Of a stretch of 50,821 bases of DNA, positions 2,750-18,124 are shown piece by piece (positions within the stretch are counted from its first letter, which is position 1; each line of letters begins with the position of its first letter). A program made the position numbers and the translations under genes. Under the pieces are notes generated by a model. That model ran no database searches. It saw nothing but the letters and a program-made list of their open reading frames with translations, and had not been told where the DNA came from. The DNA lies in the IMG/VR virus record IMGVR_UViG_3300026551_000004, positions 1 to 50,821 of that record, one strand, 5' to 3'. Source of the stretch: a virus. Lineage: Duplodnaviria; Caudoviricetes.

Positions 2750-3189
2750 TGTCTAAACGTCCACGTAAGTCAGGTATGCGGCGTGCATACTTAAAGAAAA
2801 CTTCGCACCATTACGACAGCAGTCCAGATAGTGCTTTGAAAGCAGCTATTGGGTTGGGTAGAAACATCAATCCAATTACAGCTACTCCTAACAGAGCTAG
2901 ATTATGGTTGAATAAGAATAAACACACACCAACCATGACTCAACCAATGATTGAGCGTGTGGAGTCATGGCGTATTGCTGTTAAAGAACAAAAGAATGAG
3001 TATTCACATTACATTACTAACACTCCTCTGAAACAAATTAAATTGTTTTATACTGGTTTCTCTGTTCGTGAAACCTATTGGTTTGTTTGGTTTGATCCTA
3101 TACTTAACGAACACCGTACATCAATAACCTACGGTAGCAGAGTGATTGCCATGGGTCACTTTACTAAAGGATCAATCACATGGAAATAG
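2749..3189 (+). CDS. Hypothetical protein
   Basis: ~146-aa ORF coupled to the KTSC gene (TGATG overlap). Confidence 0.65.
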   Translation: MSKRPRKSGMRRAYLKKTSHHYDSSPDSALKAAIGLGRNINPITATPNRARLWLNKNKHTPTMTQPMIERVESWRIAVKEQKNEYSHYITNTPLKQIKLFYTGFSVRETYWFVWFDPILNEHRTSITYGSRVIAMGHFTKGSITWK

Positions 3190-4760: not shown

Positions 4761-5043
4761 TCAGCAGTATCCAACCGCATCAATGGTTGGAAATGATACT
4801 AGCCATTATTGGTTTGTTCATTTACTTTATCCTCAAAGATAATAGGAGGATATGATAGGATGGCATGGCGTATATGTAAAGTACCAGGATGCCATAAAAT
4901 GAAACGTATTCAACCGTTCAATGCTAATACAAAACATCCTTGGTTGTGTTTCACACACAGACAAGAGCTGCAACAGAAAAGAATAGAACATTTAACCAGA
5001 ATGACTAATGTTAAACTATTGACTAAACTCTTTACCTCGAAAT

Positions 5044-5309
5044 AAACTCCGTAGCCGACTGCGGAGTTTTCCAACCGCTTGAGCTGATTTCCTCAGACCT
5101 CAGCTCGCGGTTGGTTTTCTACCCTAGCTGGCGAAAGCCAGCGTCGACGTTGCCAAAGGCAACTCGAAAGCTCAGAGAGAACGCTTCCCCACGGTAACCA
5201 CCGGCGAACTCTCTGGGCCTCGCCCCTCAGTATTTTTGTTCGCCCTTAGGTACTGAGGGGCACTTATTCTCAGGATACCCACATGAAACCTGGGTATCAC
5301 CAGAATAAG
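5044..5309 (+). ncRNA. Array of seven consecutive hairpins (structured leader or ncRNA)
   Basis: Stems at 5044-5069, 5071-5114, 5127-5142 (GAAA loop), 5149-5163, 5170-5218, 5222-5261 and 5263-5309; several G-U pairs fit + strand RNA. Confidence 0.6.
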
Positions 5310-5827: not shown

Positions 5828-7195
5828 ATGTCGACTGTTAGCCGGACTTGTTTGGTCTATGCCAACAAAGGCAATCTACCTCCGGATGATTACTTGGCAC
5901 GTGTAGCTGCCAAGTACAACTCTTGGTACGGTTTTGCATTCGTCCAAGATGGCGAGATCATTTACGACATGGCCGCTGAAAGTGCCACTGCCGACGGTAT
6001 CAAACTGTTTCTCCAAAACAAGGAGATTGAAGGCGTCGACAAGATTATGGTTTTCGGCAAAGAAGCGAACAGCGTCACTCTTGACCCGAAAGATGCTGAT
6101 CACCCAAACATTCAGCCACTCATCTTGATTGAAGAAGGCGAAGGCAGCAACGCCGTACCTAAGTGTCTCGTCTTCATTGACGGAGAATTCCCTGGACTGG
6201 AAAGCAACACAGCGGACGAAGGTCGGCCGTATTTATTCTGTGGTCAGTATCTCAATCCCAAGATCCAAGAGAAATGGGAAGACTCTGGAGCAGATGTTGC
6301 GAAGTTTCTGGAGAAGATCAAACGGCCAGTCTTTCAGACTGACATCGAGAACTATGATAAGGAAATCGCTGTTGCCGTACTGTGCCCCGGCGATGGTGGT
6401 TTCGTTTACTTCGCAGCTAGAGACTCCCACGATTATCCCTGGGGTTTCACTAACGATACCTGCGGATGGGAAGACAAAGTCCCTACGTCTGGGAGTCCGT
6501 CTTCAACGGTAACCCCTGGTAAACGGGGTAGACTGACATCATTGATGACAAGTGTGGCACCGGCTGCAAGCGATGCAGTTGTCGACAATACTTCATCTGT
6601 TATTCTGTATGAAGGGCAGCTACCTGCTAACATCATTAAGAATAACGACATCCGTGCTGCATACAAGAAATACCACGGACGTGATGAACCTCCGGGGTGG
6701 AAGAACGGAAAACCATGGGTGTCTATTCTCCCGAACATGGTGGACAATGCAAGACAACAAGGATGGAACATCCGTACATCAAAACACCTCGCTGCTCAGG
6801 CTCCCATATCACCTAGCGGTACAGAGGCTCCGCCGCAAATCCTCACCGATGTGATGAAAGACAAACTGCTGAAGTTTGTTAGCGCTATTGATGCTAACAC
6901 TCAGCAAGTCGTATCTCCGGAAGAAATGGAGAAGAATGAGACAGCGTCTCCGACATTCTGGGATGATACTGGAATGACTTTGGAAACAGGCGTCAAAGTC
7001 TTTGGTGGAAAGGAAGAGCATCGTACTACATTGATTAAAGAAAATCCTACGGCTACTTCCAAACTTATTCGTGACTTATGCTACGCTCTCTTTCGCCAAG
7101 ATGCTGCAATCGAAGCGCTCACCGAGCCTACGCCTAAAGCACCAGCTGAGCCTGCGGTTGCTGTTACCCCAGCGAAGAAGTTCTCTATGAGATAA
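5828..7195 (+). CDS. Degenerate class II glutamine amidotransferase (Ntn)-like N-domain with a long C-terminal extension
   Basis: CLVYANKG...YGFAFV, NIQPL (vs NxHPF) and FIDG (vs HNG) are spaced like GATase-II; the Cys is not N-terminal. Confidence 0.5.
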   Translation: MSTVSRTCLVYANKGNLPPDDYLARVAAKYNSWYGFAFVQDGEIIYDMAAESATADGIKLFLQNKEIEGVDKIMVFGKEANSVTLDPKDADHPNIQPLILIEEGEGSNAVPKCLVFIDGEFPGLESNTADEGRPYLFCGQYLNPKIQEKWEDSGADVAKFLEKIKRPVFQTDIENYDKEIAVAVLCPGDGGFVYFAARDSHDYPWGFTNDTCGWEDKVPTSGSPSSTVTPGKRGRLTSLMTSVAPAASDAVVDNTSSVILYEGQLPANIIKNNDIRAAYKKYHGRDEPPGWKNGKPWVSILPNMVDNARQQGWNIRTSKHLAAQAPISPSGTEAPPQILTDVMKDKLLKFVSAIDANTQQVVSPEEMEKNETASPTFWDDTGMTLETGVKVFGGKEEHRTTLIKENPTATSKLIRDLCYALFRQDAAIEALTEPTPKAPAEPAVAVTPAKKFSMR

Positions 7196-7295: not shown

Positions 7296-7535
7296 ATGTT
7301 ATATGATCCTCCAGCAGGATGGCGATATGGATTTCCTAAACTTTATTTACCTCTGACAGGTGAAACAATCGAACAAACATTACTTCGAGATGGTTATCCA
7401 CAACATGAAATAGATAATGCCGGTGCTAAATATGTTAGATTTTTAGGTTCAAATCCGGAGTCTCACGATGCACAACCCGTTCAGCAGCAAGAAACTAAAC
7501 CAAGATTGGTTGGACAAGATTGCAGAGGAAACTGA
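7296..7535 (+). CDS. Small hypothetical phage protein
   Basis: AAGGA RBS; DPPAGWRYGFPK...GYP motif. Confidence 0.65.
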   Translation: MLYDPPAGWRYGFPKLYLPLTGETIEQTLLRDGYPQHEIDNAGAKYVRFLGSNPESHDAQPVQQQETKPRLVGQDCRGN

Positions 7536-8277
7536 GTTTACAGCCGATGCACCGGAGTTGGCACGTTGTGACTTTCATAATCTATTTGTTATTGACGATA
7601 TGCAGAGAGGAAGAAAATATCATAAAATCTTATCAGAAGGTAATGCTACACTCGTAGCAACAGCCTTCACTGAAGCACAATTCCATTGCTGGAAACGTAC
7701 TCCCGATGGACCTGAGACTGTCGCCATACAAAACACAACTAATATTGTAACTGGTCCTGAAGAAGTATTCACAGTGAAAGAAGGAAAGAAAACATCACTG
7801 GGTTTTGCTTATGATTTATCCCCTCCTGTGCGAAAGAGAGAACTTCCTCCTGCTCCTCCAATTAATGTGAGCGAGTCTCTCATTATCGCCCTCCCCAAAC
7901 AAGATCAACTAACTACTACAGAATGGGTCGAAGCCAATAGACATCGTAACCGTTACGATCATTGGGCTAAGATCAAAGGAGAACTGTGGAAAGTTCCCTC
8001 GAACCATTTCTATTCTCTTGACAAATTCATGGGAAATGGTAGAGTATTCAGACGTAGCCGAGTATTGCTTGAAGTACCGTTGAAGATGTTATATCGAAAT
8101 GGTGCACATACTCACATCGAGCGAATAATCCCAAACCAAGAAGCCTATATGTATGTAGGTATAAAAGAGTTCTGGGAACCTCAACTTGATGGTGGCTACT
8201 ATTTTCAACCCATGACCATATTCAACAACAGTAGTCTTAACCGAAAATACTATTGCTATACCAAACTGGAGGATTAA
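7468..8277 (+). CDS. Gamma-glutamylcyclotransferase (AIG2)-like protein, degenerate
   Basis: LFVIDDMQRG (vs LFVYGTLxxG), IKGELWKV, LDKFMG (vs LDxLEG), AYMY. Confidence 0.6.
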   Translation: MHNPFSSKKLNQDWLDKIAEETEFTADAPELARCDFHNLFVIDDMQRGRKYHKILSEGNATLVATAFTEAQFHCWKRTPDGPETVAIQNTTNIVTGPEEVFTVKEGKKTSLGFAYDLSPPVRKRELPPAPPINVSESLIIALPKQDQLTTTEWVEANRHRNRYDHWAKIKGELWKVPSNHFYSLDKFMGNGRVFRRSRVLLEVPLKMLYRNGAHTHIERIIPNQEAYMYVGIKEFWEPQLDGGYYFQPMTIFNNSSLNRKYYCYTKLED

Positions 8278-9810
8278 ACGAGTACAATCATTGAACAACA
8301 CATTCCCTGTGACCGTTGTGGTTCTTCAGATGCTAAGTGTATTTGGGATGACGGTCATGGTTTCTGTTTCTCTTGCCAAACATTCTTTCCGAGTGAACGC
8401 CATGGGACCTCGGCCAATACCAAGGAATATACTTACGAGTATGTTCCTTGGCGTGGCGTAACTAAAGAAACAATGCAATTCTACGGTGTCAAAACTAAAG
8501 TAGACGCTGATGGTAAACCTATTGAGATTATATTTCCTTATCCTAATGCATCCAATAAGATTAGAAAGATTGAGGAAAAAGAATTTAGAACTGAGGGTGA
8601 TATATCCAAAGCTGGTTTATTTGGTCGTGATAAATTCTCGGCCGGTAGTAGCAAATTCGTTACTATCTGTGAAGGAGAACTCGATGCTCAATCGCTCCAT
8701 CAAGCTATCAACTCTCCTGTGGTCAGCGTTCGTAGTAGCACTACTGCTGCTAGCGATGTCACTTTGGATAGATCCTGGGTTGACTCATTTGAGAGGATCT
8801 ATTTATGCTTCGACAATGACCGACCTGGCAAAGAAGCTCTGGGCAATGTTGCCAAGCTATTCGACTATAATCGGGTTTATCAAGTAAAGCTTTCCAAACG
8901 AAAAGACCCGAATGAGTATCTACAGGCAGGTGAAGCGGCAGAGTTAAAGCATATCTGGTGGAATTCTAAGAATTACCTGCCTGATACCATAGTATCGTCC
9001 TTCGATGAGTTCGAAGAAATCTTAAATGCCGATCTGCAATATGGGTTTCCATATCCATGGACAACCCTAACGGAGATGACATATGGGATCCGAACAGGAG
9101 AATCAGTTCTCATCACGGCTCAAGAAGGAGTCGGAAAAACAGAATTTCTCCACGCAATCGAGTACAAGTTCCTCAGAGAAACCGATGAAAACATCGCCTC
9201 CATCTTCCTCGAAGAACCCAAAAGAAGACATCTACAGGCTATTGCAAGTCTTGAGCTTGGTAGACCTGCGCATATTCCCGCAGTTGATCTCACACAAACT
9301 GACATCATGGCTGCTGTCCGAAAAGCTATATCGTCGGATGGCCGTTACCACCTGTACAATCACTTTGGGAGTGTGGATCCAGATACACTTCTGGATGCTA
9401 TACGGTTTTTACGTACTGCCCGTGGCTGTCGCCGTATCTTCTGTGATGGTATTACTCTGGGCGTTAGCGGTCTTCAAGGAGAAGACGAAAGGAAAGCTCT
9501 CGATTACCTCACCAACAGACTAGAGATGATGGTGAAGGAACTAGACTTCTCTTTCATCTTCAGTAGCCACGTGAACGATAACTACCAAACACGTGGCTCT
9601 CGCAATACTTCTAAGGTTGCGGACATACGTATAGATTTAACAAGAGACTTAACCAATGCCGACAACACCATCAGGAACACCACAGATATCTCAGTCTCAA
9701 AAAACAGGTTCTGTGGACGAACTGGACCTGCTGGTCGACTCCTATTTAACCCTAACACGTATTCCTACGTGGAGGCATCTAATGACAACCAACGGGAGAT
9801 GGCAGCATGA
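8278..9810 (+). CDS. T7 gp4-like DNA primase-helicase
   Basis: Zn finger PCDRCGSSDA...FCFSC upstream of the ATG 8473 call; TOPRIM CEGELDA and FDND; Walker A QEGVGKT; RGS; KNRFCGRTG. Confidence 0.93.
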   Translation, partial: TSTIIEQHIPCDRCGSSDAKCIWDDGHGFCFSCQTFFPSERHGTSANTKEYTYEYVPWRGVTKETMQFYGVKTKVDADGKPIEIIFPYPNASNKIRKIEEKEFRTEGDISKAGLFGRDKFSAGSSKFVTICEGELDAQSLHQAINSPVVSVRSSTTAASDVTLDRSWVDSFERIYLCFDNDRPGKEALGNVAKLFDYNRVYQVKLSKRKDPNEYLQAGEAAELKHIWWNSKNYLPDTIVSSFDEFEEILNADLQYGFPYPWTTLTEMTYGIRTGESVLITAQEGVGKTEFLHAIEYKFLRETDENIASIFLEEPKRRHLQAIASLELGRPAHIPAVDLTQTDIMAAVRKAISSDGRYHLYNHFGSVDPDTLLDAIRFLRTARGCRRIFCDGITLGVSGLQGEDERKALDYLTNRLEMMVKELDFSFIFSSHVNDNYQTRGSRNTSKVADIRIDLTRDLTNADNTIRNTTDISVSKNRFCGRTGPAGRLLFNPNTYSYVEASNDNQREMAA

Positions 9811-11062: not shown

Positions 11063-11308
11063 ATAAACAGATATACTAATCTTCCTAATAAAATCTATAG
11101 ATTTGGAGATAATACTCATTGTCTTGTTTTTAGAAGAAAAAGAGGATGGAGTTACACTTGTAGAATTCCAATAGAAGGAAAAAGATTTATTCAAATGTCT
11201 CTTAATAATCATACTTTTGCTGAGTCAGAAGAAGATGCTAAAAGTAAATCTATTCCTTCTTTATTTGATCTAAAAGAAAGACTATCTGGTTTACTTCTTA
11301 CAGCATGA
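11063..11308 (+). CDS. Possible hypothetical protein lacking a canonical start
   Basis: Stop-free frame 11048-11308 in AT-rich DNA, ending in an ATGA overlap with the polymerase start; ATA at 11063 is a candidate start. Confidence 0.4.
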   Translation: MNRYTNLPNKIYRFGDNTHCLVFRRKRGWSYTCRIPIEGKRFIQMSLNNHTFAESEEDAKSKSIPSLFDLKERLSGLLLTA

Positions 11309-13239
11309 GAGTAGTCTTAGACATAGAAGCTAATGGTAAAGATAACCCTACTAAAATATGGGTTATCTGTTGTCTGGATATCGACACTGGTAAACTACAT
11401 ACCTTCAGGAGAGTCAGCGATGATCCCGTACAGAAAGAAGAGTTTCTGGTATTTAGTAAGCGCGTCAATACTTGGATTGGCCATAATATTATCGCTTATG
11501 ACTTCCCCGTTCTCTCCTCTCTTCTTTCTCTTCAAACTCCTCCTCTTAATTGTAATAGGTGTATTGATACTCTTATTGTTAGCAAACTTAACGATTACTC
11601 CAGAGGACAAGGACATTCCTTAGAGTCTTACGGGGAAGAACTAAACTACCCCAAGAACCTCTTCTCTGACTGGTCTAAATACTCTCAAGAACTGGAGGAT
11701 CGTTGTGCAACAGATGTTCGACTCAATCTACTGGTTTACAATACTCTCTTCGATAGCTACATTAAGCATAGCTGCAATAAATCCGCTATTACTACAGAGC
11801 AGGAGTTTCAGCAGGATTGCGTGGACCTTGGTAACACTGGCTTTGGGTTTGCCACTCCTAAATGTAATCTTCTTCTAGAGAAAGTAACCAGGGAATTAAA
11901 GGAACTTGACGATGACATCAGACAATCCTTTCCTCCGCGCTTGCACTGTATTCGTGAAATCACTCCCAGATACACCAAATATGGGACTCTTAATAGGACG
12001 GACTTCCGATGGGTATCTGGCGGTGATGTATCGGAATTCAACGGAGGTTCATTCTGTAGATGTGAATACCGACCCTTTAATCCTAGCTCTCATAAACAAA
12101 TTATTCGCATCTTGCATAGTGCAGGTTGGAAACCAACAAGTAAAACCAAAGGTCACATTGAGGCCCTCCGCAACAGACAGACTCTCCCAAGCAGGCTACA
12201 GGAGATACAAAAGACCGGGTGGAAGATCAACGAAGAAAACTTAAGTACTTTACCTTCTAGTGCCCCATCCCCTGCTCGTGCGCTTGCAAGGCGTATCTTG
12301 CTTGAGTCCAGGCGTCGCACTCTCACTGAGTGGACAGGGTTAGTGGCGGAGGATGGACGCATCCACGGTAGTTTTCTCAGCATTGGTGCCTGGACTCACA
12401 GGATGGCTCACCAGAAGCCAAACATGGCTAATATTCCCAAAAGCCATGATCTTGAAGGAAAGGTTAAGCTTCTTGGGTCAGAGATGAGATCTCTATTCTG
12501 TTGTAGTAGAGACCGTCTATTGGTGGGTGTAGATGCGGAGTCAATACAACTCCGGATCTTTGCCCATTACATAGATGATGAAGAGTTCACTAACTCTCTT
12601 ATTTACGGTAAGAAGGAGGACAAAAGTGACCCACACAGCCTCAACCAAAGAGTACTCGGTAGTGTTTGCAAAAGCAGGGAAGCCGCCAAGCGTTTCATCT
12701 ATGCATTTCTACTCGGAGCGGGACTTGGAAAGCTATCTGAGATACTTGGGTGTGGAAGAGAGGAGGCGGAACGTGCTCTTGCGAAACTTATGGAGCGATA
12801 TACCGGTTTCGACTACCTTAAGAGAACAGTTATTCCAAGAGATGCCCGTAAAGGCTGGTTTACAGGACTGGATGGACGCAAAGTTAATATACCTGGAGTG
12901 GACGTGGGGGAAAGACGGCATCTGGCTATGTCTGGCTATCTTCAGAACGGAGAAGCCATCATAATGAAGAAAGCAAGATTAAATTGGAAGAAAAAGATTG
13001 ACTTAATCTTTCCGAAGGAGTACAACATCAAACTAGTTAACTTCGTACATGATGAATGGCAAACTGAAGTACCTAATGATTTAATGATTGCTCATCAAGT
13101 AGCGAAGATTAAGTGTCAATCACTGGTAGAAACAGGAGTAGAACTTAAACTAAAGTGTCCATTAGCAGGTAGCTATGGAGAAAACCACAATGATCCACGA
13201 ACGTGGACAATAGGGAGTAATTGGAAAGTTACACATTAA
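11305..13239 (+). CDS. Family A DNA polymerase with 3'-5' exonuclease
   Basis: ExoI DIE, ExoII HNIIAYD; motif A DAESIQLR, motif B KRFIYAFLLG, motif C VHDE. Confidence 0.97.
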   Translation: MRVVLDIEANGKDNPTKIWVICCLDIDTGKLHTFRRVSDDPVQKEEFLVFSKRVNTWIGHNIIAYDFPVLSSLLSLQTPPLNCNRCIDTLIVSKLNDYSRGQGHSLESYGEELNYPKNLFSDWSKYSQELEDRCATDVRLNLLVYNTLFDSYIKHSCNKSAITTEQEFQQDCVDLGNTGFGFATPKCNLLLEKVTRELKELDDDIRQSFPPRLHCIREITPRYTKYGTLNRTDFRWVSGGDVSEFNGGSFCRCEYRPFNPSSHKQIIRILHSAGWKPTSKTKGHIEALRNRQTLPSRLQEIQKTGWKINEENLSTLPSSAPSPARALARRILLESRRRTLTEWTGLVAEDGRIHGSFLSIGAWTHRMAHQKPNMANIPKSHDLEGKVKLLGSEMRSLFCCSRDRLLVGVDAESIQLRIFAHYIDDEEFTNSLIYGKKEDKSDPHSLNQRVLGSVCKSREAAKRFIYAFLLGAGLGKLSEILGCGREEAERALAKLMERYTGFDYLKRTVIPRDARKGWFTGLDGRKVNIPGVDVGERRHLAMSGYLQNGEAIIMKKARLNWKKKIDLIFPKEYNIKLVNFVHDEWQTEVPNDLMIAHQVAKIKCQSLVETGVELKLKCPLAGSYGENHNDPRTWTIGSNWKVTH

Positions 13240-13240
13240 G

Positions 13241-13408
13241 ATGAAAACATATCAATTTGAATTTGAATATATGGTACCAGAGTTTGCTACTGTGACTGTG
13301 GAAACCAAAGATGATATTAATACAGCCAAGACTTTGGCTATGGCAGAATTTACCCGGATGTATCCAGAAGCAATTGATCCGGAGATTGTTAGTACTACCA
13401 GTGACTGA
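13241..13408 (+). CDS. Small hypothetical protein (55 aa)
   Basis: MKTYQFEFEYMVPEF...; fills the gap between the polymerase and SSB genes. Confidence 0.55.
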   Translation: MKTYQFEFEYMVPEFATVTVETKDDINTAKTLAMAEFTRMYPEAIDPEIVSTTSD

Positions 13409-13883
13409 ATACGTTTATTTAAGTGGTAAGTGTAAGTGGTGTAAGGCCATTACACCTAATCAATTCGGAGACTGGAGGACTGATCTTTATCCTGACGACA
13501 AGTCTTTAACAAAGATCATGGAACTTAAAGCGAGAGGACTTAAGAATACGCTAAAGAAAGATGACGATGGACCATGCATGTCTTTCAAACGTCCCATGAC
13601 AAAGATGATGAAAGGCAGAGCAGTTAACTTTACAAACCCTGTTGTGGTTAACAGTGCTGGAACGCCTATTAATGAAGCAATAGGCAATGGTTCAGAAGTT
13701 ACAATTAAACTCTTGATTTATCCATTTAGAACTCCCAACGGTGCCAGTGGTATCGGTGCCAGATGGGAGTCAGTAAGAGTTGATAACTTAGTTCCTTGGG
13801 AATTGAAAGACTTTGCGAGTCCAGAGGAAAGAGAAGCTATCTTTGGACTTAAGGAAGCACCTAAAGGTGAATATAACTTCTAA
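13401..13883 (+). CDS. Single-stranded DNA-binding protein (T7 gp2.5-like)
   Basis: LSGKCKW...IGNGSEVTIK...RWESVRV, aromatic C-terminal residue; GTG start at 13401. Confidence 0.75.
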   Translation: MTEYVYLSGKCKWCKAITPNQFGDWRTDLYPDDKSLTKIMELKARGLKNTLKKDDDGPCMSFKRPMTKMMKGRAVNFTNPVVVNSAGTPINEAIGNGSEVTIKLLIYPFRTPNGASGIGARWESVRVDNLVPWELKDFASPEEREAIFGLKEAPKGEYNF

Positions 13884-14039
13884 TGGAATTCTTAAAAGAA
13901 TACTCTAAAGAAGAGTTGGAGATTAATAAACTTAAATGTCAAGTAGAAGGACTGACAGATCGAGTTAATCTCTTAGAAAGATACTATATTGAGTGGTTGA
14001 AGTTAAAAAAGTACTATAATTTGAAAGAAGGAGAATAAT

Positions 14040-14249
14040 ATGTACCTTACAACCGAGAAGATTTATGAGAAGGATGCTGACTCAGCACATTCTCATTACA
14101 CACGAGCATGGTCAACTAGAGAAGCAGCTGAGGATCATGCTAAGCGTAAGGCTCAGACTACCAACGGTGCACCTGAGTTCCAGGTGTATATGTTGATTTC
14201 TACTACTAAGACTTCAGGTGTTTATGAAGCTGAGGTTAAGCTTGTTTGA
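14040..14249 (+). CDS. Small hypothetical protein (paralogue group)
   Basis: AGGAG RBS; WSTREAAEDHA. Confidence 0.7.
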   Translation: MYLTTEKIYEKDADSAHSHYTRAWSTREAAEDHAKRKAQTTNGAPEFQVYMLISTTKTSGVYEAEVKLV

Positions 14250-14298
14250 AATTTCTAACTTCATAGAAGATATTTACAATAAAAAGGAGACAAGACCA

Positions 14299-14511
14299 AT
14301 GTCTAGTGCTGTTTATGTAGAAACTTGGATGGATGGTTATTGCAACAATCAATTCAAGACCCGTGACGAAGCTGTTGCATCCGCAACTAAGCACGCTCAG
14401 TATTATAAGACTGACGTAGCGATCTGGAGGTCCGTGGCTGTTGCCCGGTATCCGTTTCCCACAATCACTATTGAGGAAATTGTACCAGTGGTGGCACAAG
14501 CCTCAAGTTAA
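14299..14511 (+). CDS. Small hypothetical protein (paralogue group)
   Basis: AGGAG RBS; FKTRDEAVASA. Confidence 0.7.
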   Translation: MSSAVYVETWMDGYCNNQFKTRDEAVASATKHAQYYKTDVAIWRSVAVARYPFPTITIEEIVPVVAQASS

Positions 14512-14529
14512 TGTTGAGGAGATTGTTTA

Positions 14530-14808
14530 ATGTCTTTTAAAGATTATCTCACCGATGGTGAGTGGGATGATTTTATGTTTGACGAAGAAGAGGAGAATAC
14601 TATGACTATTGATTTCACGAAACCCGTTTACCTCGTTGCTTGCCAGGACTCTAGCGCCTTGTTCAATGATCTTGACGGGGCAATCAAGAAGGCAGCAACA
14701 AGCGCGAAAATGGATCGAGACGGTGACGATTATTTCGTCATGCAAGCGATCAAGCGTGTGGCTACGCCACGTCCCGAGGCAACCATTACGGATATGCCTG
14801 TTGCCTAA
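14530..14808 (+). CDS. Small hypothetical protein (paralogue group; alternative start 14602)
   Basis: RBS before both 14530 and 14602; FNDLDGAIKKA. Confidence 0.7.
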   Translation: MSFKDYLTDGEWDDFMFDEEEENTMTIDFTKPVYLVACQDSSALFNDLDGAIKKAATSAKMDRDGDDYFVMQAIKRVATPRPEATITDMPVA

Positions 14809-14946
14809 CTACTCATCTAGTTAGGTATCTCCTGCCAGTAACAAAGAACCTGGTAGAGCCCGCGGTCAAAGGTTCTAATACCAATGTGCGCGGCGGGCAT
14901 AGTTCATTAATAGTTAGGCAATTTGCCCTCACTTGGAGTAAAGATC

Positions 14947-15189
14947 ATGTCTATCTTTCGCACAACACACATATACAATTCCGATAAGATAGAAAAGTAT
15001 CATCCCTCCAAGGAAGAGGCGGTGACTTTCTTGACTATCAAAGCTTTCGAAGATTTTCTAGGACGCATACCTACCAAAGGAATGAACTTAGAAAAAAGAG
15101 CTGATACTGCAAGACAACTTCTTCCTGCTCTTTTAGACCGACTTGAAGAAATTGAGAAACACGTCGAGGAATATAAACCGGTAAAATAG
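14947..15189 (+). CDS. Hypothetical protein
   Basis: GGAG RBS before MSIFRTTHIY. Confidence 0.6.
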   Translation: MSIFRTTHIYNSDKIEKYHPSKEEAVTFLTIKAFEDFLGRIPTKGMNLEKRADTARQLLPALLDRLEEIEKHVEEYKPVK

Positions 15190-16750
15190 TTTGTTACTTG
15201 CCACTAGTCGCATATATCACCGGGTGGTAATAAGCTCTAGTAAAGCTGACTAGAGTACCGAGTGCAACTCTGACCTACTGAAGTCCTTTTGTCCATGACT
15301 ACATGATGAGTGCGATACCGCGGGAATAGAAACAGTAGGAAACATTCCCGCCTTGGTAGTAAAACTTCATGTAAGATGCAACTCAGGAACGTGGGTGAGT
15401 GGTGGTAGAGTGGTGATCTACCCTAGTGAGGAGAGACCCAGCGTGTGCACGTAATGTACATCCATATAGGTGTGAAAGCAGACTGAGGCTTCTCAATCCA
15501 TTTAGCTGCAGGATACAAAAAGCAGCAAGACTGGCTACATCAGTACTTGTACTGGTTCGACTCCAGTCCTACTCGACTGACAGGTATCGAGAGTGTGGCG
15601 CAATATGGCAGACGCAACTGATGATGCCACCCGCAACGTCACCTGTGGAGGCTAAAAACGGAGACAATAGGACGTGTACCTCTATGTCCGGTGGCAGACG
15701 ATCAGCCGTCTGAACCACAACGGAGTCCATACCCTAGTGGTCAGACAACATAGAGCGACGTCATCCACGCCTCACGTGGAGTAGCTTTGAATAATCGTCT
15801 CATACGTAACAACCTGAGATGTGTCTCTCGGGCTAGTGTTCCTAGTATAGTATGGGACAAGTAGGATACACACCGCTCTTTGGACGGAGTGTAGGTTCCC
15901 AGATGGTTCGAAGCCATCATGGTGGTAGTGGGACCAGCTAATCCCTCAACGGGAACGCGAAATACCAAATGGTAAAGGAACCGAGGCCAGTCCTAAACGT
16001 CTTCTCTCAGAGTCCCTGGGAAATAAACCGACGTGTAAGCAAATCACATTGACAGAAACGAGACAGTCTTGTGTACCAGGCCACCGCTGAAATAGTGCGG
16101 ACTGGAATAGACAGCAGCAGATTACTGCTTCCTCTATTGTAAGCAAGATACCTCTCAAGGATGTATGCAGGGTGCAACCTGTAGATGCGGACTACCAACC
16201 CGCGTGTGGTAAGGCGAATACTGTTGAAGAGGTGAGGAAGAGTGTGATCCGAAAATAATGGGTTTCTTAGGTGTTACAGCAACGAGCAGAGCGAGTCTGC
16301 TGTTGCTAGACTGTTGAGGCTCCATTAGCTTCTCTGGTCGTCTTCTTTCCCTTTTGAAGGCAGAGGAAGCCGTTAACGATCACCGATGAACAATACCCAC
16401 TCCAAGCAGCAGCTGCTATAGTGCGCAAACTCACATTGACCGTCTTGTCTGGGATGCTAGACAGAATGGTGACGAGCAGTAGAATGTGTAGTCTTAAGTC
16501 CCAGCCGCAAGTTCCCGACTTCTCACACAGTCGCAGACATAAAGCCGCCGGATGCAAGACAACTGAGTACTCGGCCTGACTCGGGCAGGAAAGGTATTCT
16601 ACATAAGTCTCTTGTGAGGTACTCAAGTTCTACTTACCCAGTTCCGGCAGTCAACCGTAAGCTGGACCATCGTAGAGATTGGAGGTGTTGGATGAGGCAT
16701 AAGTATATTACTCCACCTATCCGCCCCCCTTAAGTTCACCAGTATGCCGA
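15190..16750 (+). ncRNA. Candidate large structured non-coding RNA (one RNA or a cluster)
   Basis: No credible RBS-led ORF over 1.55 kb; continuous stems, T-loops, a pseudoknot and a permuted tRNA-like domain; boundaries approximate. Confidence 0.75.
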
Positions 16751-16765
16751 GAAGAGGAGGTTAAC

Positions 16766-17038
16766 ATGTTCGGCTATCCAATTTATCAACAGTCACAACC
16801 ACAGAAATCAATTAAAGAACAGATAGATGAATTAGAACTTCTATCTGAATTTCTGAAGAAGAAATATGAAAAGAAAGATGATAAAGGATCACCTAAGTTG
16901 AAAGATAAGAAGTTCTCCATATGGGAGGGAGGTTTAATTCTCTGGGTATTTAGCTTTACTTGTGCTGTTCCTATAGTTGGACTTCAACTGAGCAGTATCT
17001 ACAATCTATTTCAAACTATGAATAGGATGTTTAAATGA
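16766..17038 (+). CDS. Membrane protein
   Basis: GAGGAGG RBS; C-terminal hydrophobic segment. Confidence 0.7.
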   Translation: MFGYPIYQQSQPQKSIKEQIDELELLSEFLKKKYEKKDDKGSPKLKDKKFSIWEGGLILWVFSFTCAVPIVGLQLSSIYNLFQTMNRMFK

Positions 17039-17286
17039 AAAGACCAGAATTAAGACCCCATCATTTTGATGGGAAAGTTTCCAAAGTAGTTGAAGAATGC
17101 GGAGAAGTATTGCAGGAAATAGGTAAACTTCAGAGACACGGAGCCTTTGCAACTGATCCATCTGACTCAACTAAACACTATGATAACATTTCTCCCTTGA
17201 AAGCAGAGCTTCTTGATTTGCAAGATGCAATAGAACAATTACTTATTGAGCGAATATTTGAAATCAATACACACACTAGTACCTGA
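17035..17286 (+). CDS. MazG-like nucleotide pyrophosphohydrolase
   Basis: KVVEECGEVLQEIGK...AELLDL (EExxE...ExxD). Confidence 0.75.
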   Translation: MKRPELRPHHFDGKVSKVVEECGEVLQEIGKLQRHGAFATDPSDSTKHYDNISPLKAELLDLQDAIEQLLIERIFEINTHTST

Positions 17287-18124
17287 CGTTTACGAACTCT
17301 TACAAACGAAGGGATGGTACAATGAAACTCTACTTTCCTACTTCAGCGCTCAACTCAATACGAGCCTTAAAGCGCAATGGTCAGATAGTGACGGTACACA
17401 TCGCGGACTTAGATTATCTCGAATGGGAGATCAGTGTCCGAGAGCTTTATGGTACAGCATCCACCAGCCAGAACTGGCCGAACCTCTCCCATCTTGGGCT
17501 AATTTTAAATACACGTACGGACACATAATAGAGGCTTTGGCTCTAACCTTAGCTAAGGCCGCAGGCCATCGAGTTGAGGGAGAGCAGGATGAGTTGGTCG
17601 TCGATGGGATTAAAGGTCATCGCGACGCTGTTATTGACGGCTGTCTCGTGGACGTTAAATCTGCTACAAGTTTTAAAGTGGCAGAGAGCAGAAGGGGATC
17701 TTTGGAGAAGAACGATAATTTTGGCTACCTCGATCAGCTTGATGGTTATGTACTTGGATCTGCTAATGATCCTTTGGTTACTGTAAAGGACAAAGGATAT
17801 CTCTGGTTCATCGATAAAACCTTGGGGCACATGCATGTCTACGAACACACCGCGAGACCCGAACGGATACTTCATCGAGTTAACGAATATAAAATCGTTG
17901 TTGAGCGAAGCTCAGAGCCTGCTTGTACGTGCGGAACAAGACCAAGAGGAACATCCGGAAACATCGAACTCGATGTTAGAGCAAGCTATTCACCGTTTAA
18001 ACACAGCTGTTTCCCGCACCTTAGGACTTTCCTCTACTCTGATGGGCCGGTTTATCTTTCTAGAGTTTCAAAGACTCCTGATGTCCCAGAAATTAACAGA
18101 CAAGGAAGAATAGTTTATCACTAA
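17258..18124 (+). CDS. PD-(D/E)XK (Cas4-like) exonuclease
   Basis: LRLSRMG..CPRALWY, YGHIIE, GHRDAVID...VDVKS, YLDQLDGY; probable TTG start MKSIHTLV. Confidence 0.85.
   Translation: MKSIHTLVPDVYELLQTKGWYNETLLSYFSAQLNTSLKAQWSDSDGTHRGLRLSRMGDQCPRALWYSIHQPELAEPLPSWANFKYTYGHIIEALALTLAKAAGHRVEGEQDELVVDGIKGHRDAVIDGCLVDVKSATSFKVAESRRGSLEKNDNFGYLDQLDGYVLGSANDPLVTVKDKGYLWFIDKTLGHMHVYEHTARPERILHRVNEYKIVVERSSEPACTCGTRPRGTSGNIELDVRASYSPFKHSCFPHLRTFLYSDGPVYLSRVSKTPDVPEINRQGRIVYH

Follow-up and report, generated by a model that had tools for sequence, protein, structure and literature searches.

The stretch of DNA analysed here, called the window throughout, is the IMG/VR record IMGVR_UViG_3300026551_000004 at its full length. 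This source record is a complete virus record of 50,821 bases, and the sequencing runs containing it are soil metagenomes. Its plus-strand half carries a T7-like replication module, and genes of podophage type for head, portal, terminase and tail occupy its minus-strand half. Between the genes for a single-stranded DNA-binding protein (SSB)-like product and a Cas4-like exonuclease, the interval from the stop codon at 15187–15189 to the next gene at 16766 lacks any credible open reading frame (ORF). We take this interval to encode a large structured RNA, within which 98 nucleotides (nt) at 15532–15629 have the layout of a circularly permuted transfer RNA (tRNA) body; that domain, and the RNA that carries it, are the subject of this analysis (Table 1).

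The whole 1,581 nt has a homologue in viral contig L001 at 75% identity, and the alignment is a succession of fully identical blocks, up to 60 bases long, interrupted by variable stems and by indels (1, 2, 19, 21 and 40 nt) that are not uniformly divisible by 3. The non-coding stretch is better conserved against L001 than the upstream protein gene is. Pattern scans recovered five further copies, some of them cut by contig ends (L010, equal to L012; L011; L013; L014; L016), and RNAalifold applied to the seven homologous sequences returned many helices with compensatory changes. From these comparisons we take 15190–16765 to be a real, structured, plus-strand RNA of ~1.57 kb that is presumably transcribed. 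Rfam 15 at gathering thresholds has no family that matches it, and at E up to 10 the region 14000–18000 gave only a chance snoRNA-like match; blastn of the 1.58-kb region against INPHARED phages found no match. Four exact-word scans of viral contigs returned the same two contigs only, a gapped module pattern returned only the contigs of L001 and L002, and blastn-short and nhmmer comparisons of the whole RNA with the L002/L003-type RNAs gave only short, non-collinear words. A scan for promoters and terminators found promoter-like sites at the level of shuffled sequence and no convincing flanking signals. The conserved 5′ word at 15198–15220 is not a repeated phage promoter, since it occurs once in the genome.

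Table 1. Features of the window, from the replication genes to the elements of the permuted tRNA body (coordinates are positions in the window).
Feature	Coordinates	Strand	Basis or remark
Primase/helicase	8473–9810	+	T7-like replication module
Family A DNA polymerase	11305–13239	+	T7-like replication module
gp2.5-like SSB	13311–13883	+	T7-like replication module
Putative large conserved structured non-coding RNA, ~1.57 kb	15190–16765	+	No credible ORF; full-length homology; compensatory helices
Basal helix, 5′ strand TGGC	15532–15535	+	Pairs with 15626–15629; 2×2 internal loop 15536–15537/15624–15625
Closing stem, 5′ strand CATCAGT (= tRNA anticodon-stem 3′ strand)	15538–15544	+	Pairs with 15617–15623
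Variable loop ACTTGT	15545–15550	+	ACAAGT in L001
T arm ACTGG-TTCGACT-CCAGT, 5-bp stem	15551–15567	+	Stem covaries across modules
Acceptor-like hairpin CCTACTCGA / 10-nt loop / TCGAGAGTG	15568–15595	+	Cap 15577–15586; nine positions
TG (= U8, G9)	15596–15597	+	In 9/10 aligned modules; TA in L050
D arm GCG / CAATATGGCAGA / CGC, tRNA-Leu type	15598–15615	+	Sequence and module alignment
A15616 (= tRNA position 26)	15616	+	Between D arm and closing stem
Closing stem, 3′ strand ACTGATG (= tRNA anticodon-stem 5′ strand)	15617–15623	+	Pairs with CATCAGT
Basal helix, 3′ strand GCCA	15626–15629	+	Pairs with TGGC, 15532–15535
Nearly invariant block directly 3′ of the domain, containing GGAGGCTAAAA	15630–15672	+	42/43 positions identical in each of five homologues
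Second T-arm-like hairpin GATGG-TTCGAAG-CCATC	15902–15918	+	3/5 stem pairs compensatory in four homologues
Cas4-domain exonuclease	17246–18124	+	T7-like replication module

Read from its 5′ end, the domain presents the anticodon-stem 3′ strand, variable loop, T arm, acceptor 3′ strand and a cap, and then, after the cap, the acceptor 5′ strand, U8-G9, the D arm, position 26 and the anticodon-stem 5′ strand. A sequence check located within 15532–15629 on the plus strand every element that the original prediction had listed, including the succession of T arm, closed acceptor hairpin, D arm and closing stem that it had likened to YrlA RNAs and to permuted precursors of transfer-messenger RNA (tmRNA); the true D stem and the lack of CCA and of a G3-U70 pair were likewise seen as described. 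The conserved tRNA nucleotides are all present (U8, A14, G18G19, A21, G53, T54-T55-C56-purine57-A58 and C61). The domain has no anticodon loop, CCA or free acceptor end and can therefore neither decode nor be charged. In the acceptor-like hairpin seven of nine positions form standard pairs, C15569/T15594 and A15571/A15592 being unpaired, and the A-T pair 15576/15587 becomes G-C in L001. The GGC/GCC of the basal helix is kept in all six close homologues, and its outermost pair in two of them.

ARAGORN, its permuted tmRNA model included, found nothing in the native sequence and called no tRNA gene in the native window or in the first seven loci. The domain was then un-permuted: its two native halves were re-joined in tRNA order at the anticodon-equivalent stem and passed to ARAGORN, which called a 74–79 nt tRNA for 216 of 729 junction choices (the anticodon it names shifts with the arbitrary junction and is meaningless), with G1 at 15589 or 15588 and the discriminator at G15575. 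The same re-joining made every 10 nt on both strands of the genome gave five calls among 60,492 constructs, all of them at this locus read from the other strand, which leaves none among the 60,487 constructs elsewhere; none of 3,000 shuffles was called. The likeness to tRNA thus exceeds chance, and together with the covariation across modules described below it bears out the central claim of the original prediction, that a circularly permuted tRNA-like domain is embedded in a large RNA.

Permuted tRNA genes, such as those of the red alga Cyanidioschyzon, have the same order of 3′ half, linker and 5′ half, and one could imagine that the locus yields a working tRNA, with the flanking RNA serving as a permuted intron, or the ends being ligated otherwise, and the cap being removed. 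We find this extremely improbable. The stretch 15619–15627 can pair alternatively with 15633–15641, a U-G pair included, and L050 has a perfect 7-bp acceptor stem; however, the closing stem lacks an adjacent U33 or purine-37 context and runs on as a helix (the residues beside its 5-bp form are T and G on one side and C and A on the other, followed by the 2×2 loop and GGC/GCC), and the relatives without an acceptor hairpin would be unable to give a tRNA at all. A search for group I or group II introns at E up to 10 found no match and the phage genome has no RtcB gene, so that the permuted intron-exon idea found no support.

Variation in nature respects the tRNA layout. Among the seven copies and the contigs of four further soil runs, variants fall only where tRNAs vary, beside the one compensated A-T to G-C switch at 15576/15587: the sites are T-loop positions 57 (G>A) and 59 (C>G/A), the D-loop at position 20 and just ahead of G18G19, the variable loop and the cap. 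In L012 a 29-nt hairpin is inserted just before the invariant GG of the D-loop. Identity to L001 is 90/100 for the domain and 42/43 for the block that follows it, whereas the 5′ part reaches 75% and the adjacent stem 51%, and the domain with the 43 nt after it is the best-conserved part of the large RNA. The stems of the domain are invariant in sequence among the close homologues while the neighbouring helices covary freely, which suggests that whatever reads the module also sees its sequence.

Covariation becomes apparent over larger distances. An exonuclease profile fetched 80 loci from related viral contigs, only nine of which hold ordinary tRNAs recognised by ARAGORN. These loci contain 66 T-arm-like hairpins (58 on the plus strand), mostly 0.5–3 kb upstream of the exonuclease gene, and 12 of the 66 become ARAGORN tRNAs once un-permuted. 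Ten modules aligned with MAFFT share the pattern T arm ... TG-GYG-(A-rich loop with GG)-CRC; in their T and D stems 79 of 79 cells are paired and four of eight pairs show compensatory changes, which none of 500 shuffles matches, the middle pair of the D stem changing from C-G to U-A in four of the ten. Given the window, L001, L030 and L033, RNAalifold predicted the permuted cloverleaf de novo, with 13 of 19 pairs compensatory; 73 of 73 cells pair in this set, again unmatched in 500 shuffles, and controls slid along the alignment pair in 32–49% of cells. Six of the seven closing-stem pairs show compensatory changes relative to L030 and L033. For L023 and L048 the RNAalifold result is a core without the acceptor stem, in which compensatory changes affect 7 of 19 pairs, including pairs of the closing stem and of a long variable arm.

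The module recurs in kilobase-sized ORF-free gaps of related phages. When 924,229 nt were searched with a covariance model built on the T and D arms (R1), 61 hits came back, of which 59 lie on the sense strand. At 30 bits or more there were 21 hits in 15 of the 80 exonuclease-anchored loci; ten of these are seed sequences, which match by construction, and five are independent new modules (L023, L026, L042, L046 and L048). Ordinary tRNA-Arg genes score ~21 bits with the same model. A strict motif scan gave 15 hits on the plus strand and none on the minus strand, with 0.1 in shuffles. All 16 modules lie in intervals of 1.0–3.4 kb free of plus-strand ORFs of at least 100 aa, 465–2,686 nt upstream of the exonuclease gene, and an Rfam search of ten of the related loci gave no hits. 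What stays constant across modules is the T arm, U8-G9, a 3-bp D stem with an A-rich GG-containing loop, one nucleotide, and a closing stem of 5–9 bp whose sequence differs from phage to phage. In 8 of 13 modules the acceptor segment forms a hairpin of 4–17 bp from end to end, and in the other five it is a 5–7 nt linker; the variable region measures 5–6 nt in the window, L030, L033 and L050 and forms an arm of 14–30 nt in the rest (8/13 modules), and hairpins are inserted in the D-loops of L012, L042 and L026. The D-arm consensus equals that of ordinary tRNA-Leu genes met in the genome scan, and this, the 3-bp D stem and the long variable arms suggest that the ancestor of the module was a class-II, tRNA-Leu-like molecule.

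This variation bears directly on the second role considered in the original prediction, that of a handle for RNase P. Cleavage 5′ of G15589, 3′ trimming after G15575 and possibly the addition of CCA would leave two pieces held together by the acceptor stem, much as in the YrlA of M. smegmatis or a two-piece tmRNA. ARAGORN does model a 7-position acceptor stem stacked on the T arm, and the M. smegmatis YrlA, whose stem has 7 bp, is cleaved by RNase P and given CCA, according to the available text of PMC4201824. The acceptor hairpin is, however, missing in 5 of 13 modules, where a linker takes its place, and in others it has 4–6 bp with caps down to 3–6 nt; CCA is not encoded; and the hairpin of the window has positions −1 and −2 paired with 73 and 74 and two inner positions unpaired. 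We consider a processing handle improbable, and as a conserved function it is unlikely; cleavage in this phage alone is conceivable.

We interpret the 98 nt, with moderate confidence, as a genuine circularly permuted class-II (tRNA-Leu-like) tRNA body that would act as a displayed mimic of the tRNA core, its binding partner being one that recognises tRNA bodies. What closes the body is the anticodon-stem equivalent, which would run on as a stalk into the ~1.57-kb structured phage RNA, and the body would fold, most likely, through the canonical contacts between D-loop and T-loop. As a portable tRNA-core mimic the module might be displayed to a host protein or RNA, candidates being a T-loop or D-loop enzyme, a class-II synthetase, the specificity domain of RNase P and the ribosome; once bound, the partner would be tethered to the large RNA or sequestered on it. 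Since nothing but the T arm, the D arm, U8-G9 and the closing stem stays constant, what is selected is probably the tRNA elbow and core, and a tRNA-elbow mimic, as first proposed for this domain, fits what the relatives conserve; it may or may not serve as a decoy. By the same token the acceptor hairpin is dispensable across the family, and a conserved role as a substrate of RNase P, of a CCA-adding enzyme or of a synthetase is therefore unlikely. From this pattern of conservation we infer the three-dimensional elbow and any partner.

Several observations weigh against this interpretation. By minimum free energy (MFE) the domain is no more stable than its shuffles (z −0.16; minus strand −0.54), and among the six close homologues 90.5% of cells pair with a single compensatory pair, a result that 86 of 500 shuffles equal. 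The MFE structure of the individual sequence is the full cloverleaf in two of these six and a long competing hairpin in three, and RNAalifold on the close set favours the same hairpin, whose pairings include 15534–15539 with 15594–15599 and 15543–15550 with 15580–15587. The un-permuted L001 copy, with a D-loop 2 nt longer, was not called by ARAGORN in any of 6,318 constructs, which makes the un-permutation test fragile, and a cloverleaf parser that used pairs only did not beat shuffled flanks except for L050. Tests of the closing stem against shuffles are individually weak module by module (p 0.001–0.68). The acceptor-like stem has its two non-pairing positions, and the 6-nt variable loop is atypical; transcription, strand and ends of the RNA rest on conservation, G-U pairs and T-loop polarity; no partner protein was found in the phage; and we assume that modules of distant phages are homologous, although tRNA-Leu may have been captured independently.

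Taken at face value, the predicted hairpin would mean that no tRNA fold forms and that the tRNA features are the fossil of a captured tRNA. We hold this to be very improbable: L001 breaks three consecutive pairs of the hairpin with its cloverleaf untouched, and the window breaks one; distant modules unable to form the hairpin yet keep the cloverleaf, with compensatory changes; and nucleotides that are specific to tRNA and unpaired (U8, G18G19 and those of the T-loop) are invariant.

The leading rival to a displayed mimic is an architectural piece, in which the elbow would be a rigid corner whose flat G19-C56 face docks on the same RNA or on another copy, helping a kilobase RNA to fold or multimerise, as GOLLD and ROOL do. 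The large RNA has further T-loop hairpins, such as that at 15902–15918, which un-permutation did not turn into an ARAGORN tRNA (0/6,318 constructs) and after which a GG-containing single strand follows. Relatives also have what appear to be minimal elbows: L003 (4800–4850), L021 (~4905–4950) and L039 (~5135–5185) lack the full module and carry instead, within a 7-bp stem, a T arm and a 12–14 nt GG-containing 3′ bulge, which by eye is a T arm with a stem-less analogue of the D-loop. Hairpins with GTGCAAC loops, containing the self-complementary UGCA, recur at 15262–15272 and 16166–16182 and in L021, L028 and L039, and could be loop-loop kissing sites. In addition, phage GOLLD and ROOL make RNA-only cages, according to the accessible portion of 10.1101/2024.12.08.627333. 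We nevertheless judge the architectural role rather unlikely. No receptor was identified, the invariance of the stems among close homologues whose neighbouring helices covary suggests a sequence-specific reader, and the position of the module relative to motifs shared by the large RNAs differs, which suits a portable handle better than a fixed internal contact.

These shared words are GGAGGCTAAAA, CGGCTGTNTACCG, CCACCTTAAG and GGGTGCAACC; the first three lie in the window at 15641–15667, ~16645 and ~16725, and GGGTGCAACC is common to 5 of 24 large-RNA regions. The module precedes the shared words in some phages and comes after them in others, and so behaves as a portable unit; the large RNAs, compared in this way, look modular and rearranged. 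We rejected the idea that the large RNAs of different phages are, as wholes, simple circular permutations of each other, since rotation does not convert one motif order into another. Extending the displayed-mimic reading, one may tentatively see in the kilobase RNAs a new class of large ornate phage RNA assembled from portable modules, in which a permuted body of tRNA-Leu, deprived first of its anticodon and in some lineages later of its acceptor stem, captures a host factor able to read tRNA bodies. A class-II aminoacyl-tRNA synthetase might be that factor and act as a folding cofactor, as the synthetases CYT-18 and NAM2 do for group I introns; so might a tRNA-directed defence nuclease that is decoyed. 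We regard this extended scheme as doubtful. If true, it would provide phages with an RNA-based route to take over or disarm machinery that recognises tRNA.

Further tRNA-related elements lie in and around these RNAs. Within the window a 21-nt direct repeat, 76% identical, joins 15558–15578, which spans the 3′ side of the T arm and the acceptor 3′ strand, to a second copy 424 nt downstream at 15982–16002, and may be the trace of an internal duplication. L050 has at 2749–2950 a perfect permuted tRNA whose acceptor stem has 7 bp, whose D arm is canonical and whose linker measures ~24–26 nt; an anticodon-arm-like hairpin stands before it, and A/T-rich repeats of the AAAGCT/CAAAGTT type come after it. 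Beside similar repeats, L002 has at 3040–3170 a non-permuted tRNA-like element that ARAGORN does not call. A scan of a genome collection for the T-arm/acceptor word of the window gave no hits, and the acceptor-less module pattern gave 32 stretches, ~20 of them in Microcoleus-type cyanobacteria. The one cyanobacterial stretch that was read (L124) lies within a protein-coding frame, and none of the 14 of 32 stretches scored with R1 was verified as a phage-type module. In planctomycete-type contigs a T-arm-like hairpin without an acceptor strand of its own stands directly before an ordinary tRNA-Leu gene (L114 3459–3500, L129 3416–3450 and L116 1772–1798).

The cultured relatives of the phage are distant, with exonuclease identity of at most 42%, and mostly infect Alphaproteobacteria; among them are roseophages CRP-13 and CRP-4, SIO1, pelagiphages and HMO-2011. 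CRP-13 has no gap at the position corresponding to the large RNA. Three large plus-strand ORFs at 821–2110 (429 aa), 5828–7195 (455 aa) and 7468–8277 (269 aa) have no PHROG or Pfam match, and a PDB sequence search with the first two proteins found none either. No phage RNA polymerase was recognised among the ORFs scanned. Upstream of an 88-aa ORF, a 16-nt inverted repeat whose arms are 88% complementary closes an intergenic element of ~120 nt at 14801–14921, inside which there are GC-rich pairings. L010 conserves the element with ~90 nt inserted, and the element may represent another small structured RNA.

Among known RNAs the closest in design is YrlA, which occurs in bacteria and some phages. 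In the available parts of PMC4201824 and 10.1101/312249, most YrlAs are said to look like tRNAs that are circularly permuted and have closed acceptor stems, and their conserved D and T stems are proposed as a site for an unknown factor. The topology is the same as that of the phage domain (stem strand, variable region, T arm, closed acceptor, two nucleotides, D arm, stem strand), and the canonical tRNA tertiary nucleotides are present in both. Membership of the YrlA family nevertheless fails on the model, the Ro gene and the motif: cmsearch with RF02553 (gathering 69 bits) gave no match over the whole genome even at E 10; the complete 50.8-kb phage record, the one sequence to which that search applies, has nothing that the TROVE/Ro60 profile PF05731 recognises at E up to 0.1; and the Ro motif GNCGAAN0-1G, with 14 plus 11 matches in the window, has none within 15190–16765. 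YrlA is moreover an RNA of 80–220 nt whose own ends form the Ro-binding stem, whereas the phage domain is internal to a 1.57-kb RNA with conserved structured flanks, and its acceptor hairpin, unlike that of YrlA, is dispensable among the phage relatives.

The two-piece tmRNA shares with the domain a helix into a larger RNA in place of the anticodon stem, and a T arm that precedes the 5′ acceptor strand. Neither ARAGORN nor the Rfam tmRNA families found a tmRNA, and with G1 at 15589 position 3 (G15591) faces C15572, giving G3-C70, with ACT after G15575. Unlike tmRNA, the domain has a true D stem, no CCA and a capped acceptor that is absent in some relatives. ARAGORN reported no tag peptide, and no separate search for a tag frame was made. 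The phage record holds neither a Ro nor an SmpB gene, in agreement with the original prediction; hosts normally supply SmpB. We reject a tmRNA identity on the null results of ARAGORN and Rfam, the G3-C70 pair and the missing CCA.

As large, intricate and protein-free-looking phage RNAs, GOLLD and ROOL are the nearest large counterparts, and in the accessible portion of 10.1101/2024.12.08.627333 both are tied to tRNAs, the linkers of GOLLD sometimes holding them. Their Rfam models found no match in the window or in ten related loci. The tRNA body of the present phage differs from those in being permuted, devoid of an anticodon and joined through the anticodon stem, and phages of this clade are almost without ordinary tRNA genes. 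Small bacterial tRNA mimics, tLRNA-1/2/3 (skipping-rope RF02924, DUF2693-FD RF02926 and salivarius-1 RF03030), are set out in the available part of a 2026 preprint, which supplies these accessions; the corresponding Rfam 15 models gave no match. As given there, they follow a rule by which an acceptor-like helix of 5–8 bp abuts a T stem-loop of 5 bp and 7 nt with a UUYRANY-type loop. The window shares it, 15568 following directly on 15567 and the loop being TTCGACT, and in 5 of 13 modules the abutting helix is absent. In the same text the tLRNAs are small free RNAs described without the canonical D-loop/T-loop network; the phage module, in contrast, has a canonical D arm and a dispensable acceptor helix, and lies within a kilobase RNA.

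A full-text search found no published description of the phage RNA, pieces of which might be held in the tables of PMC10690425 (8,495 IMG/VR candidate RNAs). Permuted, closed-acceptor tRNA mimics were previously known essentially from the Ro60-tied YrlA Y RNAs. Here the YrlA design appears without Ro, in what we take to be kilobase structured RNAs of an uncultured clade of ~50-kb podophages, a large phage RNA family absent from Rfam. The phage family itself shows which part counts, the elbow and core being kept and the acceptor optional, and so offers a defined RNA surface that could be used for fishing out a partner. These loci would also form a natural series in which a tRNA-Leu gene has been remodelled into a building block of a larger RNA.

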